Shown: positions 1 through 6,201 of the stretch, piece after piece
How the letters are laid out: each line of letters begins with the position of its first letter
How positions within the stretch are numbered: position 1 is the first letter of the stretch
The notes under the pieces: model-generated
The model's database searches: none
Seen by the model: only the letters and a program-made list of their open reading frames with translations
Told to the model about the DNA's origin: nothing
Program-made: the position numbers and the translations under genes
DNA from: Fidelibacterota bacterium
GTDB taxonomy: Bacteria; Fidelibacterota; Fidelibacteria; Fidelibacterales; Fidelibacteraceae
DNA: 12,941 bases
NCBI GenBank assembly: GCA_034723415.1
Contig: JAYEOX010000004.1
Location: 1-12,941, forward strand
Direction: 5' to 3'

Positions 1-130
1 TAACGGTTGGTATAAGAATAGTAACCGACTGCGGAACTCGAATTTTTCAAGTTACAACTAAATTTTATGCGGGCTACAATGCTCATATCTACTACTATTT
101 CGGTTATTATTTTTATACTTTGTTACCTGC
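1..130 (-). mobile_element. attC-like integron cassette recombination site (atypical, TATA-arm type); R' truncated by the window edge
   Basis: On the minus strand, R''-like GCAGGTAAC (130-122) contains the TAA stop of the upstream ORF and R'-like GTTA is at 4-1. Arms 10-28 (gtataagaatagtaaccga) and 100-118 (tcggttattatttttatac) are inverted repeats with 17/19 match. Both mismatches become G.T wobbles on the cassette bottom strand. Confidence 0.8.
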
Positions 131-1086
131 TGGCGTTCTCTATCTTTTCAAATTTTAAATATCTGTTTTCAAAATCAATAATCCATTTGTCAGTACAATG
201 ATTTTTTATTGTTTCAACTAATCTTTCAATTGTCAATGGTTTAAAATGGCTTTCAACGTCTTTTTTAAAAGTCTTTTTATATTCTTCAATTCCAGTTTTA
301 CAATTCAAATTTCCCGATGGAAATAAATAAATGAAGTCTCCTATTTCATAGTCATTATTTGTAACGAAAAGACTTAAAGTCAAAAGATGGTCTCTCCAAA
401 TTTGTTGGATTGGTTTTTCTTTTAATCTATTGATATTCGTCATTTCAAAAATTCCTGATGCAGATGAAATTGTTTCATAAGTATTTTTATGAGTAGAAGG
501 TTCATCATTCAAATCTTCGGCATATTTTACTTCAATTCCAAAAATTCCATTTTTGTCTTTTTCCGTTTCATATTCAATAAATACATCAAATGCAGAACTA
601 TCACCAGTGTATTTCGGATTTTTTCTTCCAGGCGAATATTCAAATTCAATAGCCGTTACTCTTTTTAGGTTTCTTTCGGGATATAGTTTTTTGAAGATTA
701 TTGTTGCCAATTCATTATTTATTTTCAATTCTCCGAAAAGATTAAATGCCAATGGTTGACTGGAAAGTAAATTATTCCAAATTCTTGGCTCTTGAATTAC
801 TTTTCCGTCAATATGTTTATTTTTGACTTCAAATTTTACAATTTCAGAAATTCCGTTAGTTAAAAAATTCGCTCCCGTTTCTTTTGCGAAATCCAGTTTC
901 AAGAAGTTTCCGTATTTCTCAAATTCAAAACCGTTTTCCGTTCTCCAAATACTTTGAAGTATTCGTGCGTTTGAAGCAAAATCAGTCTTGTCGTAATAAT
1001 CAGTTTCGTATTTTTTTCTTAATTCTTTGTCAGGTTTCATTTTATTCACTTTTTATACGGACTTCGTTTCTTCCGCTTGCAGGTAA
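4..1086 (-). mobile_element. Single-gene integron-type cassette (~1083 bp) carrying a nuclease gene
   Basis: Bounded by G|TT crossover points at 1087/1086 and 4/3. The 5' core GTTACCTGC (1087-1079) is the exact 9-bp complement of R'' GCAGGTAAC at the cassette 3' end. One ORF fills the unit with under 50 bp of leader. Confidence 0.75.
123..1049 (-). CDS. PD-(D/E)XK-superfamily nuclease, resembling the PGN_0703-family putative restriction endonucleases (start GTG 1049 or ATG 1040)
   Basis: 308-aa ORF with motifs ARILQSIWR, NNLLSSQPLAFNLFG, catalytic-type D-SSAF-D...GIEVKY-E and QQIWRDHLL. Confidence 0.72.
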   Translation of the reverse strand: MNKMKPDKELRKKYETDYYDKTDFASNARILQSIWRTENGFEFEKYGNFLKLDFAKETGANFLTNGISEIVKFEVKNKHIDGKVIQEPRIWNNLLSSQPLAFNLFGELKINNELATIIFKKLYPERNLKRVTAIEFEYSPGRKNPKYTGDSSAFDVFIEYETEKDKNGIFGIEVKYAEDLNDEPSTHKNTYETISSASGIFEMTNINRLKEKPIQQIWRDHLLTLSLFVTNNDYEIGDFIYLFPSGNLNCKTGIEEYKKTFKKDVESHFKPLTIERLVETIKNHCTDKWIIDFENRYLKFEKIENASR

Positions 1087-1114
1087 CGGTTGTGTATAGT
1101 TATTGTTCTTACAC
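1079..1114 (-). other. Array-head recombination site (attI-like or half attC): ...TATACACAACC-G|TTACCTGC
   Basis: taacggttg at 1084-1092 directly repeats 1-9 and is followed by tgtata (gtata in the attC). No complementary partner arm was found in 1100-1360. A small GTGTA/TACAC inverted repeat lies at 1092-1096/1110-1114. Confidence 0.55.
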
Positions 1115-1157
1115 TACCAAATTGGAGGGATAAGCACCATTGCAATGTGCTGCGGGG

Positions 1158-1190
1158 CACTGAGCCTGTCGAAGTGAGCCCGCCGAAGTG
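1158..1190 (+). repeat. REP-like motif CACTGAGCCTGTCGAAGTG plus a partial second copy
   Basis: Motif at 1158-1176, followed by gagcccgccgaagtg (1176-1190). An inverted near-copy is at 2666-2685. This is a GC-rich patch in an AT-rich spacer. Confidence 0.65.
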
Positions 1191-1298
1191 CGATGTATTT
1201 TTCTTTTATAATCTTTTCTAACATTATTCTATTTTAAACAATTTTTACGAAACAAAAAAGGATTTTTTTAAATTATTTTAAAATTATAAAAAATTATT

Positions 1299-1327
1299 TT
1301 GAAATTGAACAATATAATTGTTATCTT
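1299..1327 (+). promoter_or_regulatory. Putative sigma70-type promoter for the ATPase operon with an overlapping palindrome
   Basis: TTGAAA (1299-1304)-N17-TATCTT (1322-1327) with extended -10 TG at 1319-1320. Palindrome AACAAT-ata-ATTGTT at 1308-1322. AAGGA RBS at 1349-1353. Confidence 0.5.
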
Positions 1328-1361
1328 ATCAACTATGAAAAAAATAAAAAGGAATTCATAA

Positions 1362-2723
1362 ATGAAGAAAGTATATAATAAAATATTAAGCGTTGTAGGG
1401 AATGTAATTACAGTTAAAGCAACGGATGTTGCAAACGAAGAATTAGCGGAAGTTTCAACGGATCGCGGCAAGACATTAGCACAGGTAATAAAATTGGAAG
1501 ATGAATTGGTATCGTTACAGGTTTTCTCCGGTAGTAAAGGAGTTGCTACAAATGATGAGGTGAGATTTTTAGGTCATCCGATGAAGGTTTCATTCTCAGA
1601 AAATATGTTAGGTAGGATTTTTGATGGAAGTGGCGAGCCGAGAGATAATGGTCCTTCTTTACAGGAAAATCTTATAGAAATCGGTACTCCTTCAGTAAAT
1701 CCTGCAAAGCGAATAATTCCAAATAGAATGATCAGAACAAATATTCCTATGATCGATGTATTTAATTCATTGGTCGTATCACAAAAGTTGCCGATATTTT
1801 CCGTATCAGGTGAGCCGTATAATGAATTATTGGCAAGAATTGCATTGCAGGCAGAAGTTGATATGATAATTCTCGGCGGAATTGGTTTAAAATATGATGA
1901 ATATATGTATTTCAGGAATGAATTGGAAAAAGGCGGTGCTTTAAATCGTTCGATATTTTTTATGCATACAGCTGCCGATCCAATTGTTGAAGGATTAATG
2001 GTTCCGGATCTGTGTCTCGCAGTTGCTGAAAAATTTGCATTACAAGGTAAAGATGTCTTAGTACTTTTAACCGATATGACAAATTTTGCTGATGCTTTGA
2101 AAGAAATTGCAATCACAATGGAACAAGTTCCATCGAATAGAGGATATCCGGGAGATCTGTATAGTCAGCTTGCTTCTCGTTATGAAAAAGCAGTTGATTT
2201 TGATGATGCCGGTTCGATTACAACTTTAGCCGCAACCACAATGCCCGGAGATGATGTTACTCATCCGGTTCCTGATAATACCGGTTATATTACAGAGGGA
2301 CAATTTTATCTTCGCAATGGTAGAATTGAACCATTTGGTTCATTAAGTAGATTGAAACAACAAGTAAATAAAGATACGAGAGAAGATCATAGAGCAATTA
2401 TGGATGGAATGATCCAACTCTACGCAAATTATAAAGAGACAGAAGAGAAGCGTTCTATGGGATTCAGAATGAGCGATTTGGATGAGAAATTATTAAAATA
2501 CGGCGGAATGTTTGAATCCGAAATGATGGATCTTAAAGTAAATATTTCTTTAGAAGATGCTTTAGATAATGGTTGGAAAATTTTATCAGAATGTTTTGAT
2601 AAAGATGAGACGAATTTTAGAAGTGAATTGATCGAGAAGTTTTGGCCTGAAGAAGGTGGCTCGCACACTTCGACATTGCTCAGTGCAAGAAGTCGCAAAG
2701 ACGCAAAGGGGAATTTAGATTAA
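1362..2723 (+). CDS. atpB: V/A-type ATP synthase subunit B (non-catalytic)
   Basis: Motifs [68 protein letters not shown] and [10 protein letters not shown], typical of the spirochaete/Bacteroidota/Chlamydia-type subunit B. Confidence 0.97.
2666..2685 (-). repeat. REP-like motif copy inside the atpB 3' end
   Basis: cacttcgacattgctcagtg is the reverse complement of CACTGAGCAATGTCGAAGTG, a near-copy of 1158-1176. Confidence 0.65.
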
Positions 2724-2750
2724 GGTTAAGATTGAATGGAGTAAAAATGT

Positions 2751-2917
2751 AGCCACGAAAGACACGAAAAAAAACACGAAGTAGTATAGAAAAAGGCAAC
2801 AAAGAAAATTTAAAATGAAAAAGGAAAAAAACCAAGCTGCAAACAATAATAAAAAATATTTTTGTGCAAATTTCGTGTTTTTCGTGGCTGAAAAATAATT
2901 TCGTGGTTTTCGTGGCT
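2751..2917. repeat. Intergenic inverted-repeat element made of 9-bp-period CACGAA/TTCGTG units
   Basis: Left arm agccacgaaagacacgaaa (2751-2769), with a third CACGAA at 2775-2780. Right arms at 2871-2889 (18/19 complementary) and 2899-2917 (17/19). A-rich spacer between arms. Confidence 0.85.
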
Positions 2918-2930
2918 AAATAAAAATATT

Positions 2931-3551
2931 ATGTCAAAAATTAAATTAACAAAAAACGAATTAAAAAAGCAGAAAGAATCGTTAAAGCGATTTACGAGAT
3001 ATTTACCTACATTAGAATTAAAAAAGCAGCAGTTGTTGATTGAAGTTAGAAATATTCAGAGAAAAGTTCGTAAAATTGAAAACGAAATCAAGAAATTGGA
3101 AAGTGATGTTGATAAGTGGGTTGATGTATTTGGTGAAGATGTGGGAATTCAGGATTTATTTGAAGTAAAAGGAATAGATACTGCTACCGATAATGTTGCC
3201 GGAATAGATGTTCCGATATTTAATGATATTAAGATCGATATAGAAGAATATGATCTTATGAAGTATCCGTTATGGGTTGATTTTGGTCTGGAAGCCATAA
3301 AAAAAATTATTAAATTAAAAACAGAAATTGAAATTTTACATGAACAGCAAGATATTTTGGAAAAGGAATTGAGAATAACTATTCAAAGAATAAATTTATT
3401 TGATAAAATAAAAATTCCTGAATCGCGTGAAAATATAAGAAGAATTCGTATATTTTTAGGAGATCAACAGACAGCTGCGGTAGTTAGGGGTAAAATATCA
3501 AAGTCAAAATTAGAGAAGAAGAGAATTGCTGAGGCAAATAATGTTGGATAA
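2931..3551 (+). CDS. atpD: V/A-type ATP synthase subunit D
   Basis: 206 aa. N-terminal KLTKNELKKQK..L....RYLPTLELKKQQL and C-terminal ELRITIQRINLFDKIKIP. Located between B and I. Confidence 0.95.
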   Translation: MSKIKLTKNELKKQKESLKRFTRYLPTLELKKQQLLIEVRNIQRKVRKIENEIKKLESDVDKWVDVFGEDVGIQDLFEVKGIDTATDNVAGIDVPIFNDIKIDIEEYDLMKYPLWVDFGLEAIKKIIKLKTEIEILHEQQDILEKELRITIQRINLFDKIKIPESRENIRRIRIFLGDQQTAAVVRGKISKSKLEKKRIAEANNVG

Positions 3552-3581
3552 TAAAAATAAAAATTGGATGGAAAGAAGATA

Positions 3582-5375
3582 ATGATTTCTGAAATGTCAA
3601 AACTTACGTTATTGGTGATGAAATCAAATATTGATGATACCATTAAAAAATTACGCAAACTCGGTGTGATCCATATTAAGGAGATAAAAAAACCTGTATC
3701 TGAAGATATTGATAAATTAAAATCCGATTTAGATAATACAGAATCTGTAATTAATATTCTTACAAGTAGGGAAGAGAAAAAACAGAAAGATAACAAAAAG
3801 TCCCAATCAATTATTGAAGATATTATTAATTTAGAAAAAGAGAAAAAAGAATTAGTTACAAAACAAAATGAATTGGAAAAGATCGAGAATTGGTATGAGG
3901 ATTGGGGAGTAATTTCATTAAAAGATATTGAAGAAATTAAAAAATCAGGTTATAATATCAAATTATTTTCACAACCTGTTTCGTATTTAAAAACAATCGA
4001 TATTGATAAAATGAAAAATATATTTATTATCAGTAAAGATAAAAATAGTGTGAAATTGGCTCAAATTGGATTTGAAAATAAAGAGGAATTAAATTTAAAA
4101 CAAATTCATCTTCCTGATTTGGAATATAAACAAACTCAAACTGAAATCAATGAAATAACAAATAGATTAGGGAAAATTGAATCGACTGTTAATGAATATT
4201 CTTCATATTTAGACAGCATAAGAGATATCAAAAAGAAATTAGAGAAGAAATTAGAATTTGCGCAAGTTAAATATGGAGTAGGTGATTCGGAATCGATTTA
4301 TTATTTAAATGGATATTTTCCAACAATTAAAAAAGATAAAGTAAAAAAAGAAGCGGAAAAAAATAGTTGGGGATATGTGTTTGAGAAACCAACTGAAGAA
4401 GACAATCCACCGGTATTGATAAAAAATCCAAAATGGATAAGAATAATAGAACCGGTATTTAATTTTATGGGTACTACACCCGGCTATCATGAATATGATA
4501 TCAGTATTTGGTTTTTATTGTTCTTCAGTTTGTTTTTCGGAATGCTAATTGGTGATGCAGGATATGGGTTGACTTTTTTAGCAATTACATATTTTGCTCG
4601 GAGAAAATTTAAAAAAGCACCTTTTGAACCATTTGTATTGATGTATGTGTTGAGTGGTGCAACTATCATTTGGGGAGTGTTAAGTGGTACATATTTTGGT
4701 TCTGAAGCAATTGCTCACCTTCCTATATTAAAAGCACTGGTGAATCCAAACATTTCAAGTTTTGCTCTATCGTCTTCCGGGTTTAATGATAATCAGATGT
4801 TTATGATAAGTTTATGTTTTATAATAGGAGCGACACACTTGTCAATTGCTCATTTACTTAGAGCAATTAAAAATATAAAATCACTAAAAATGATCTCTCA
4901 AATTGGATGGATTGGAATAATTTGGAGTTTATATTTAATTGCAGGTAATCTTGTATTAGGAAAAGAATTTCCTCAAATTGGAATTTATTTATTTACAATA
5001 AGTTTTGTTTTAACCTTATTATTTAGTAATGCTGAAAAGGGAATATTGAAAGGATTGGGTGTTACATTAGGTAGTTTGCCACTTGATATTATTAGTGGAT
5101 TTTCCGATGTAGTATCATATTTAAGATTATTCGCAGTAGGATATGCATCTGTTGTAGTTGCATATAGTTTCAATCAAATGGCGATTGGCAGCGGTATCAA
5201 TAGTGTAATTTCAGGTGTTATTGCAGCAATAATTCTTCTTTTAGGGCATTCATTAAATATTTTATTAGGGGCAATGGCAATAATAGTTCATGGAGTTAGA
5301 TTAAATATGTTAGAATTTTCAGGACATTTAAATATGGAATGGTCAGGAATAAAATATAGACCATTTTCAGAGTAA
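3582..5375 (+). CDS. atpI: V/A-type ATP synthase subunit I (a); likely start ATG 3582 (MISEMSKLTL) rather than TTG 3564
   Basis: Soluble coiled-coil N-terminal half and hydrophobic C-terminal half with FFGMLIGDAGYG, DVVSYLRLFAVG (essential Arg) and HGVRLNMLEF. Confidence 0.95.
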   Translation: MISEMSKLTLLVMKSNIDDTIKKLRKLGVIHIKEIKKPVSEDIDKLKSDLDNTESVINILTSREEKKQKDNKKSQSIIEDIINLEKEKKELVTKQNELEKIENWYEDWGVISLKDIEEIKKSGYNIKLFSQPVSYLKTIDIDKMKNIFIISKDKNSVKLAQIGFENKEELNLKQIHLPDLEYKQTQTEINEITNRLGKIESTVNEYSSYLDSIRDIKKKLEKKLEFAQVKYGVGDSESIYYLNGYFPTIKKDKVKKEAEKNSWGYVFEKPTEEDNPPVLIKNPKWIRIIEPVFNFMGTTPGYHEYDISIWFLLFFSLFFGMLIGDAGYGLTFLAITYFARRKFKKAPFEPFVLMYVLSGATIIWGVLSGTYFGSEAIAHLPILKALVNPNISSFALSSSGFNDNQMFMISLCFIIGATHLSIAHLLRAIKNIKSLKMISQIGWIGIIWSLYLIAGNLVLGKEFPQIGIYLFTISFVLTLLFSNAEKGILKGLGVTLGSLPLDIISGFSDVVSYLRLFAVGYASVVVAYSFNQMAIGSGINSVISGVIAAIILLLGHSLNILLGAMAIIVHGVRLNMLEFSGHLNMEWSGIKYRPFSE

Positions 5376-5403
5376 AAGAATAATTATTAATTAAGGAGTA
5401 GTA

Positions 5404-5850
5404 ATGGATTTATTTTTTCAGAAAATCGGAGATTTGAACACATCGTTAACATTGGCAGCAATGGGATCTGCGTTAGGAACGGGTGTGGCAGGAATGGCAG
5501 CAATAGGAGCTTGGAAGAAAGCATTTATCAATAATAAAGCAGCTCCTTTTATTTTGATCGCGTTCGTGGGGGCACCATTATCTCAAACTATTTATGGCAT
5601 GATTTTAAGAAATGCAATTCAAAAGGTGCATTGGACAGCAGATACTGTGATTTACGGTATTTTGATTGGAATATTTAGTGGAATTGCGATGGGATTAAGT
5701 GCATTTTTTCAAGGAAAAGCTGGAGCAAGAGCATCTGATGCATTAGGTGAAACAGGCAAAGGTTTCGGAAACTATATTATGGTTTTAGGTGTAATTGAAA
5801 CCGTTGCTCTATTTGTTATGGTTTTTGCAATGACTGCATTACCTGAATAG
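5404..5850 (+). CDS. atpK: V/A-type ATP synthase subunit K (4-TM proteolipid), Na+-type signature
   Basis: 148 aa, Gly/Ala-rich helices. Motifs APLSQTIYG, FFQGK and GVIETVALF (carboxylate E132). Strong AAGGAG RBS upstream. Confidence 0.95.
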   Translation: MDLFFQKIGDLNTSLTLAAMGSALGTGVAGMAAIGAWKKAFINNKAAPFILIAFVGAPLSQTIYGMILRNAIQKVHWTADTVIYGILIGIFSGIAMGLSAFFQGKAGARASDALGETGKGFGNYIMVLGVIETVALFVMVFAMTALPE

Positions 5851-6201
5851 ATGAAACTGAATATAATTAATTTTGCAGTTACAATAATAATTATTATTCT
5901 TGTAACTGTGATTTTTGGCAGTAAATATTTTATAGATGTAACTTTGGCCGGAATTGTTAGCTTAATTAATGCTATTTCGGGATATTTTGTTTTTATAAAG
6001 TTATCGAAAAAAGAATTCCATAAAATGATGAAATGGATTTTTAAAAGTATAATAGTGAGAATAACATTTATAATATTAACTACATATTTATTAATTCATT
6101 TTGATGTTGTGAAACCAATTCCGTTTATTTTAATTTTATTTGTATTCTATCCTCTTCATCAGTTTATCGAAATAAGATATATCAAAAATTGGGTAAAATA
6201 A
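5851..6201 (+). CDS. Small 4-TM membrane protein resembling F-type ATP synthase protein I (UncI)
   Basis: 116 aa with four hydrophobic segments. The GIVSLIN helix, a basic loop, S-I-I-V-R-I and a final TM match the UncI layout. ATG directly abuts the atpK TAG. Confidence 0.55.
   Translation: MKLNIINFAVTIIIIILVTVIFGSKYFIDVTLAGIVSLINAISGYFVFIKLSKKEFHKMMKWIFKSIIVRITFIILTTYLLIHFDVVKPIPFILILFVFYPLHQFIEIRYIKNWVK

Follow-up and report, generated by a model that had tools for sequence, protein, structure and literature searches.

The window analysed here is the whole stretch of 12,941 nucleotides that forms the first bases of contig C4 (JAYEOX010000004.1) in the assembly GCA_034723415.1 of a Fidelibacterota bacterium (genome G000; 1.94 Mb in 182 contigs, 29.6% GC, 94% completeness). 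Its left end holds a nuclease gene on the minus strand (123..1040), a folded recombination site of the attC type that overlaps the end of this gene (1..130), an attI-like site on the other side of the gene (1084..1160) and, beyond it, the rest of a platform remnant that has lost its integrase gene. Judged from its sequence, the segment 4-1086 is probably an integron-type gene cassette that carries one promoterless nuclease gene with its attC, stands first at the attI-like site of the decayed platform and would be served by a short XerA-like recombinase. Sequence words of the window are present in 23 sequencing runs (12 studies), with four runs of one study containing shares of 0.86-0.95 of these words, which we count as no evidence.

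The open reading frame (ORF) of the nuclease extends over 123..1049 on the minus strand. A GTG at 1049 opens the longest frame, and the ATG at 1040 is the likely start because homologues begin with MKP. The product matches PF20796 (PDDEXK_13; 3.4e-85, 286.4 bits, cut-off 27) and PF22558 (REase-ARP; 9.4e-41), and residues D155 and E173-x-K175 are invariant in 8/8 nuclease homologues. Searches of the PADLOC and NCBIfam libraries gave no family match. Among 41 related genomes the gene was found in G000 only. It probably encodes a PD-(D/E)XK enzyme of restriction or defence type.

The TAA stop of the gene (125-123) lies inside the 9-mer GCAGGTAAC (minus strand, 130-122), within the R'' box of the attC. 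A second copy of GCAGGTAAC occupies the plus strand at 1079..1087, so that the minus strand reads GTTACCTGC 5' of the nuclease ORF. The G of this junction 9-mer comes from the attI-like site and TTACCTGC from the cassette, and the 9-mer is complementary to R'' (122-130) at 9/9 positions. Two copies in the window compare with an expectation of 0.01, at least two matches were seen in 0/200 shuffles, and the whole 1.94-Mb genome contains five copies. A circle cut at G|TT would measure 1083 nt, as computed from the boundaries (4..1086, minus strand); the first letters of the cassette, next to the crossover G at 1087, are TTACCTGC, and its last letter is the G complementary to the C at position 4. 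The 5' leader of the cassette (1041..1086, minus strand) begins with TTACCTGCAAGCGGAAGAAACG and is conserved with the leaders at the homologous loci L031 and L032, where the homology ends at the G|TT junction. The arrangement is that of integron cassettes: an ORF is followed by an imperfect inverted-repeat site of the usual attC size with the stop codon within R'', the cores are AAC and GTT, the crossover falls at G|TT and the start of the cassette itself is complementary to R''. From AAC to GTT the attC has 123 nt (2-124), or 130 nt with the R'' box, and the usual size range of attC sites is 57-141 nt.

The plus strand of the window is the bottom (recombining) strand of the cassette. On this strand the attC (1..130) consists of the R' half TAAC (1-4), the spacer GGTTG (5-9), an arm (10-28), a variable terminal region (29-99) with the family motif GCGGGCTACAA, the second arm (100-118), the spacer TTT (119-121) and the R'' box GTTACCTGC (122-130). 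The arms have 19 nt each and are complementary at 17/19 positions. The two exceptions, G16.T112 and G21.T107, form G.T pairs on the plus strand and face each other as A.C on the other strand, and the spacers differ in length (5 nt at 5-9 vs 3 nt at 119-121). Folded as DNA, 1-130 reaches -11.1 kcal/mol on the plus and -8.6 kcal/mol on the minus strand, with z values against shuffles of -1.5 and -0.44. An Rfam search of the whole window at E<=1 gave no match. A first-pass annotation of the DNA had already described the stop codon inside a 9-mer with its exact complement 5' of the ORF, the 19-bp arms with two G.T wobbles and a better bottom-strand fold, spacers of 3 and 5 nt without an extrahelical base, and a 1083-nt span limited by G|TT; all of these held.

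As a single-sequence fold is weak here, support for the hairpin comes from covariation across a family of sites. Twelve seed sites from G000 (C4, C57, C73), G003, G007 and locus L032 were used for the covariance model R1. They align at 68% mean column identity, conserved interior motif included, and their consensus fold combines a 5-pair R box with a 17-pair stem; 12 of these 22 pairs show compensatory changes. G.U pairs stand at the positions of G16.T112 (12/12), G21.T107 (11/12) and G5.T121 (12/12) of the window, and a 1-nt bulge occurs in only three of the 12 seeds. The window attC, itself a seed, scores 110.6-114.5 bits. The model matches six places in G000, with C31:118-253, C57:3561-3695 and a weak site on C135 as non-seed matches, and 20 of the 41 related genomes; the best non-seed matches in the genome have E-values down to ~1e-23. 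In 52 non-seed sites from other genomes, whose alignment was fitted to the model structure and so favours pairing, 94.3% of cells pair compared with 65.9% after shuffling, a level reached by 0/500 shuffles. In the same sites 16/17 stem pairs change on both sides, and the covariation score is 0.679 compared with 0.169 for shuffled sites and at most 0.123 when partners are slid. The equivalent of G21.T107 is a G.U pair in 52/52 of these sites and that of G16.T112 in 29/52. Spacers of 5-6 nt vs 2-3 nt, the lack of a bulge and two G.T wobbles are thus the norm of the family, although the first-pass annotation called them atypical. An L stem kept by compensatory change and an unpaired central spacer, both seen here, are traits of attC.

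A rule-based AAC...GTT hairpin scan of the genome gave 180 matches, mostly noise in DNA of 30% GC; three of them (C4, C57, C73) carried the family signature, and the scan was replaced by the covariance model. A simple scan recovered family sites solely on the strand opposite to the genes. Sites form arrays with one or a few ORFs between them: at least five follow the recombinase gene in G007, three lie in G003:C168 and two on G000:C57. The expectation that similar sites should occur elsewhere and separate ORFs was therefore borne out on C57, in G007 and in G003. The sites of G000 either lie at the edge of a contig (start of C4, start of C31, end of C73) or belong to the 3.8-kb contig C57, where a pair spaced by ~1 kb has one 290-aa ORF between its members, beside an insertion sequence (IS)-type transposase gene. 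One attC was assembled in the window, at the contig start, and two are present on C57; clusters of attC sites lacking an integron integrase (CALINs) are recognised by the grouping of at least two sites. As side observations, an IS4-type transposase gene, identified from the beginning of its ORF only, directly follows an attC at C57:1233-2441, and cassettes at L038 (G003:C168) 832-3615 carry AbiEi/AbiEii-like and nucleotidyltransferase/HepT-like pairs, likewise judged from ORF beginnings only.

When one genome per species was scanned, homologues of the nuclease turned up at eight loci. At L032, where the nuclease is 71% identical, the stop lies inside GCAGTTAAC and the leader starts with GTTAACTGC right after ...CAACC; at L034 (61% identical) the pair of R'' and 5' end is AACTTATAAC/GTTATAAGTT. 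Both loci lie in other metagenome-assembled genomes (MAGs). Their nuclease cassettes are cut at the same G|TT points, as the first-pass annotation had expected of homologues, and R'' and the own 5' end co-vary as exact complements, as closure of each cassette into a circle at G|TT would predict. Homologous leaders part from their flanks exactly at G|TT. In the set of 12 cassettes for which both ends are known, complementarity between R'' and the own 5' end is found at 9/9 positions in seven (the window, L032, L034, G007 cassettes 1 and 2, G011 and G003_c), at 8/9 in two and at no more than 5/9 in three. Mean complementarity of R'' is 7.75/9 to the own end vs 5.25/9 to the in-situ neighbour.

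At its right end the cassette adjoins the attI-like site (1084..1160, plus strand), which is made up of TAAC, the spacer GGTTG, a TGTATAG box and an imperfect hairpin around the palindrome CCAAATTGG (1117-1125). The element at 1084-~1215 is a repeat with copies on C59 and C118 of G000 and in G001, G003 (11 matches), G004 and G006; in 12 copies conservation ends at (T/C)AAC and a different gene follows each. In G006, G007 and G011 the attI-like element stands directly after the stop codon of a ~280-aa tyrosine recombinase gene and is followed by G|TT and the first cassette; in G007 and G011 an attC comes next. The window shows the same element joined to a cassette at G|TT, with the adjoining recombinase gene deleted. 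Its platform remnant (1088-~1265) is of a kind that recurs in the genus. Two 14-nt GC-rich tandem units (1161..1188, plus strand) are inserted in the remnant and absent from other copies of the element; the rest (1189..1265, plus strand) is homologous to a unit in G003 (L038:3669-3875) and reads on the minus strand as a promoter-type AT-rich leader with a few codons from either end of the lost recombinase gene. The copy on C59 joins 87 nt at 90.8% identity to sequence that runs from just before the C135 recombinase gene into its beginning with 62 nt at 80.6% identity to the G006 3' flank. Because a recombinase 5' region is here joined to a 3'-flank element, these units are platforms that have lost the recombinase gene by deletion. 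The 1084-1160 element gave no match to model R1. As a second attC, 1084-1215 was rejected for want of a partner arm and of an R1 match; as a small RNA or small ORF it was rejected since the frame (MIKEKYK...) is not kept between copies and Rfam has no match, and a stub of the recombinase gene was preferred.

From ~1265 rightward the window matches the region upstream of atpB in the congener G004, and neither a cassette nor a platform remnant precedes atpB in G003 and G004, the two congeners with enough sequence there. Platform-type units follow an attC at G|TTAGAAAA in G003:C168 and G000:C66, where they are bounded by G|TT on both sides. The same words, again as the start of a platform, follow the window attC in L030, a public 1327-nt contig that is identical to window 1-1210 and extends 117 nt further left. 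The window does start inside an R' core, as had been noted, with TAAC as its first letters, yet this start is the first base of contig C4 and hence an assembly break. The suggestion that more cassettes continue leftward found no support, as the extra 117 nt of L030 are the start of another platform-type unit and hold no ORF. L030 is filed in a MAG labelled Patescibacteria, probably through a binning slip or because it stems from the same population.

Next, we consider the enzyme. The ~280-aa recombinases of G007 and G006 exceed the cut-off of NF040815 (XerA type; 237.9 and 233.5 bits, cut-off 220). They remain below the cut-off of 265 for TIGR02249 (209.8 and 223.5 bits), which they match in two stretches that skip model positions 182-238. 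Compared with two canonical IntIs of the phylum, the short type is without 31 and 11 alignment columns of IntI; its catalytic residues R, K, HxxR, H and Y show no variation. Relatives of the short recombinase were collected at 69 loci, mostly in Bacteroidota including cultured Flavobacteriia; 23 of these end less than 1 kb after the gene. Among the 46 loci with at least 1 kb downstream, 20 have co-oriented R1 sites downstream (one is G007 itself) and a further four have R1 sites in the opposite arrangement. No IntI was found next to the arrays of G000, where the best TIGR02249 score is 137 bits against the cut-off of 265. A quick tree of 48 rows covers 38 of the 69 loci by our own choice; three more rows of the short type (G001, G006, G011) were added, and four that were short or odd were left out. 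It separates the short type together with IntI from Xer at a Shimodaira-Hasegawa-like approximate likelihood ratio (SH-aLRT) of 99, and IntI forms one clade (100) among short types; this tree is a quick search, midpoint-rooted, with long branches flagged and three Xer rows only. The first-pass proposal that a divergent recombinase acts on the site is thus carried as far as the association of the sites with the short XerA-like gene goes, and it is this association that suggests that the short recombinase moves the cassettes.

Three further observations concern recombinase loci. In G000:C135:27957-32700 the recombinase gene is followed by a Zn-ribbon ORF, two ~40-nt direct repeats that end in an attI-like ...TATACAAACGTTAGG, three genes and a weak attC (38.8 bits); the motif matches on C135 lie at 32161 and 32687, the second of them in the weak R1 site. 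At L059 (G010:C1) 10247-16110, the C-terminal fragment of a canonical IntI lies within 6 kb of sequence together with a pair of attC sites and an ORF in which a piece of an IS256-like transposase is fused to the last residues of a short-type recombinase. The short-recombinase homologues at L067-L099 (Flavobacteriales, Chitinophagales) have 345-375 aa or more and carry an N-terminal extension, which the ~280-aa proteins of G000's family are without.

Taken together, we suggest the following mechanism. The cassette would exist transiently as a circle of 1083 nt, in which TTACCTGC joins the terminal G to give a 9-bp R box. The bottom strand, the plus strand of the window, would fold into the R box, the asymmetric spacer (5 nt/3 nt) and the 19-bp stem, and a tyrosine recombinase would exchange this strand at G|TT with a double-stranded attI-like site or with another attC. 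Strand choice might rest on the conserved G.T wobbles, which pair on the bottom strand only, and on the asymmetric spacer, without bulged bases. The enzyme would most likely be the ~280-aa XerA-like recombinase that heads arrays in relatives and is without the IntI-specific insertions. The sole recombinase copy found in G000 has a stop within it, so that the cassette of this genome, unless served by an enzyme in trans, is probably frozen. More tentatively, and with somewhat more doubt than confidence on our side, the sites may belong to an unrecognised integron class that is widespread in Bacteroidota and neighbouring lineages of the Fibrobacterota-Chlorobiota-Bacteroidota (FCB) group. Such a class would use a short XerA-like integrase and mark the strand by G.T wobbles and an asymmetric spacer, and its platform (promoter, integrase gene, attI-like site) may itself enter attC sites as a cassette-like unit, leaving integrase-deleted miniatures behind.

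Several points weigh against the interpretation as a cassette moved by the short recombinase, including the caveats given above with the 52-site alignment and the tree. No bulged base is present in the 19-nt arms of the window attC, and its single-sequence fold is no better than that of shuffles. Cassette boundaries were not seen at four of the eight homologue loci (L033, L035, L036, L037) and the locus L031 shows them in decayed form only, so the expectation of common G|TT limits failed there and the nuclease gene lives outside cassettes too. Among the 46 recombinase loci with downstream sequence, 22 have no R1 site, and two f1 copies of the recombinase, on G001:C58 and G015:C191, have no array alongside. 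The only short-type gene found in G000 (C135:27957-29030) contains one in-frame TAA. Moreover, the short recombinase is without the IntI-specific domain that, as cited in passages of a study of archaeal integrons (PMC9668308), is reported to be necessary for IntI activity.

The remaining points of this kind favour the alternative that survives best, which we nevertheless regard as unlikely. According to it, the unit is an ordinary cassette made and moved by canonical IntI, which is present in other families of the phylum, and is now an integrase-less relic of the CALIN type or of its single-site counterpart (SALIN), and the short recombinase is a mere frequent neighbour or resolves something else. 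Canonical IntI exceeds the cut-off in nine of the 41 relatives, that is in 9/16 of those outside G000's family, and four of these genomes (G025, G029, G031, G035) also contain R1-type sites. G010, from the same family as G000, has two R1 sites at a distance of 4.3 kb from the C-terminal fragment of a canonical IntI; a short-recombinase stub stands right beside these sites. Furthermore, an account of a Vibrio cholerae repeat (VCR) site stripped of its extrahelical bases states that bottom-strand recombination by IntI fell 6.2-fold and that strand specificity was partly lost, with recombination not abolished (passages of PMC2727003). However, none of the 12 R1 matches in the four IntI-bearing genomes is on the contig that carries intI. 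No R1 site was seen either in the 85 kb that surround eight canonical intI genes, a sample that includes, for four of the genes, 6-10 kb on the side where an array would be expected. In G000's family IntI exceeds the cut-off in 0/25 genomes and R1 sites occur in 16/25, and in G007 and G011 the site 3' of the short recombinase gene is the exact point where the first cassette is joined, its own end being complementary at 9/9 positions.

Far less probable, and largely refuted, is a transposon-like insertion or a miniature inverted-repeat transposable element (MITE) with TAACGGTTG (1-9 and 1084-1092) as a 9-bp target duplication and the hairpin as terminator of the nuclease gene. An exact 9-nt direct repeat at both ends and a hairpin just after the stop codon would fit such an insertion, but the unit has no transposase and is without terminal inverted repeats at 10.. 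and ..1083, which together with a target-site duplication would mark an insertion sequence or MITE. The supposed duplication is the conserved spacer-plus-core common to all attC and attI-like sites of the family, and homologous cassettes elsewhere have different flanks with the same internal boundaries. No terminator-like site was found in 1-1400, and stem covariation around a conserved 70-nt interior is not terminator-like. That the inverted repeats are functionless chance matches in AT-rich DNA, to which fold energies in the shuffle range and the 180 matches of the loose scan might point, is refuted by the own-end complementarity and by the covariation across 52 independent sites. The 9-mer pair with its expectation of 0.01, the covarying complements of homologues and non-seed model matches in the genome down to E ~1e-23 speak against it as well, and it deserves practically no credence.

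To the right of the platform remnant, window 1362-6201 carries V-type ATPase genes (B, D, I, c-ring, ATP-synt_I-like), starting with subunit B. A tblastn search with subunit B found no A-subunit paralogue in the assembly, and in congeners subunit B is likewise preceded by unrelated genes. The GC-rich tandem unit TGAGCCYGYCGAAG (1161-1188) has a related 24-nt tandem array at G000:C44:105-200 and single copies on C161, C74, C67 and C31, and looks like a small repeat family in a genome of 30% GC. By its SecA protein the genome can be placed in the FCB group and no further, the best matches (54-57% identity) being to MAGs labelled Neomarinimicrobiota, Calditrichaceae or Ignavibacteria.

In its layout, the proposed cassette resembles those of integrons, for example sedentary chromosomal ones such as the VCR array of Vibrio cholerae. 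Both have promoterless ORF(s) followed by an imperfect palindromic site of ~120-135 nt, AAC/GTT cores with the crossover at G|TT, an R'' complementary to the own 5' end, the succession of R box, unpaired spacer, L stem and variable terminal region, and arrays with species- or clade-typical sites. The consensus of the R'' box in attC sites is RYYYAAC, which the window R'' fits no further than AAC. According to passages of PMC2727003, canonical attC sites have an unpaired spacer, a bottom strand with two or three extrahelical bases and a variable terminal structure, strand choice rests on the first extrahelical base, and most attC sites have a G after AAC on the bottom strand, which the window site shares. 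In contrast, the window site has conserved bottom-strand-only G.T wobbles instead of an extrahelical base, with the spacers of 5-6 vs 2-3 nt, and no IntI with the extra domain was found in G000 or its family. Passages of PMC9668308 restate this additional domain as defining for IntI.

Further known systems come close as well. CALINs, defined in passages of Cury et al. (2016; PMC4889954) as at least two attC sites within 4 kb and no integrase, likewise have attC cassettes without IntI nearby, and standard tools would file the sites of G000 there, if they detected them. Here, however, the array head is recognisable as an attI-like site with a recombinase stub. Since relatives keep the recombinase gene intact, the label "lacking integrase" may be an artefact of how the integrase is defined. 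The inverted-integrase group of the same passages (PMC4889954), for example in Treponema, shares the co-orientation of recombinase and cassettes and the attI-type site 3' of the gene, as seen in G007, G011 and G006; integrases of that group carry the IntI-specific domain, whereas the short type is without it. With XerA, XerC and XerD and with Xer-dependent integrative elements the short type has in common its ~280 aa, an NF040815 score over the cut-off and the lack of an IntI insertion. It differs from them in standing beside arrays with long folded sites, not 28-nt dif-type sites, and the quick tree groups it with IntI, not with the genomes' own Xer. Archaeal integrons, as described in passages of Ghaly et al. 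(2022; PMC9668308), have a putative attI immediately downstream of intI and many arrays that appear as CALINs in fragmented MAGs, both as here, but their IntIs are stated to have the additional domain. Among the papers listed by full-text literature searches, none was seen to deal with cassette arrays whose head is a recombinase lacking the IntI-specific domain. For Bacteroidetes proper, a passage of the IntegronFinder 2.0 paper (PMC9024848) names a single complete integron, that of Salinibacter ruber, in addition to the ones in Chlorobi and Ignavibacteriae.

Integrons are defined and searched by the extra domain of the integrase and by bulged attC sites. The present cassette system has neither, and would therefore be counted among the integrase-less clusters or missed. 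Taken alone, the window offers the smaller gain of one defence-type nuclease cassette and a decayed platform beside a V-ATPase operon. If the short recombinase is the working enzyme, however, the extra domain would not be required for cassette capture, and strand choice by wobble pairs would be a testable alternative to extrahelical bases. Integron-type exchange would then also be much commoner in Bacteroidota-like lineages than the surveys consulted here report.

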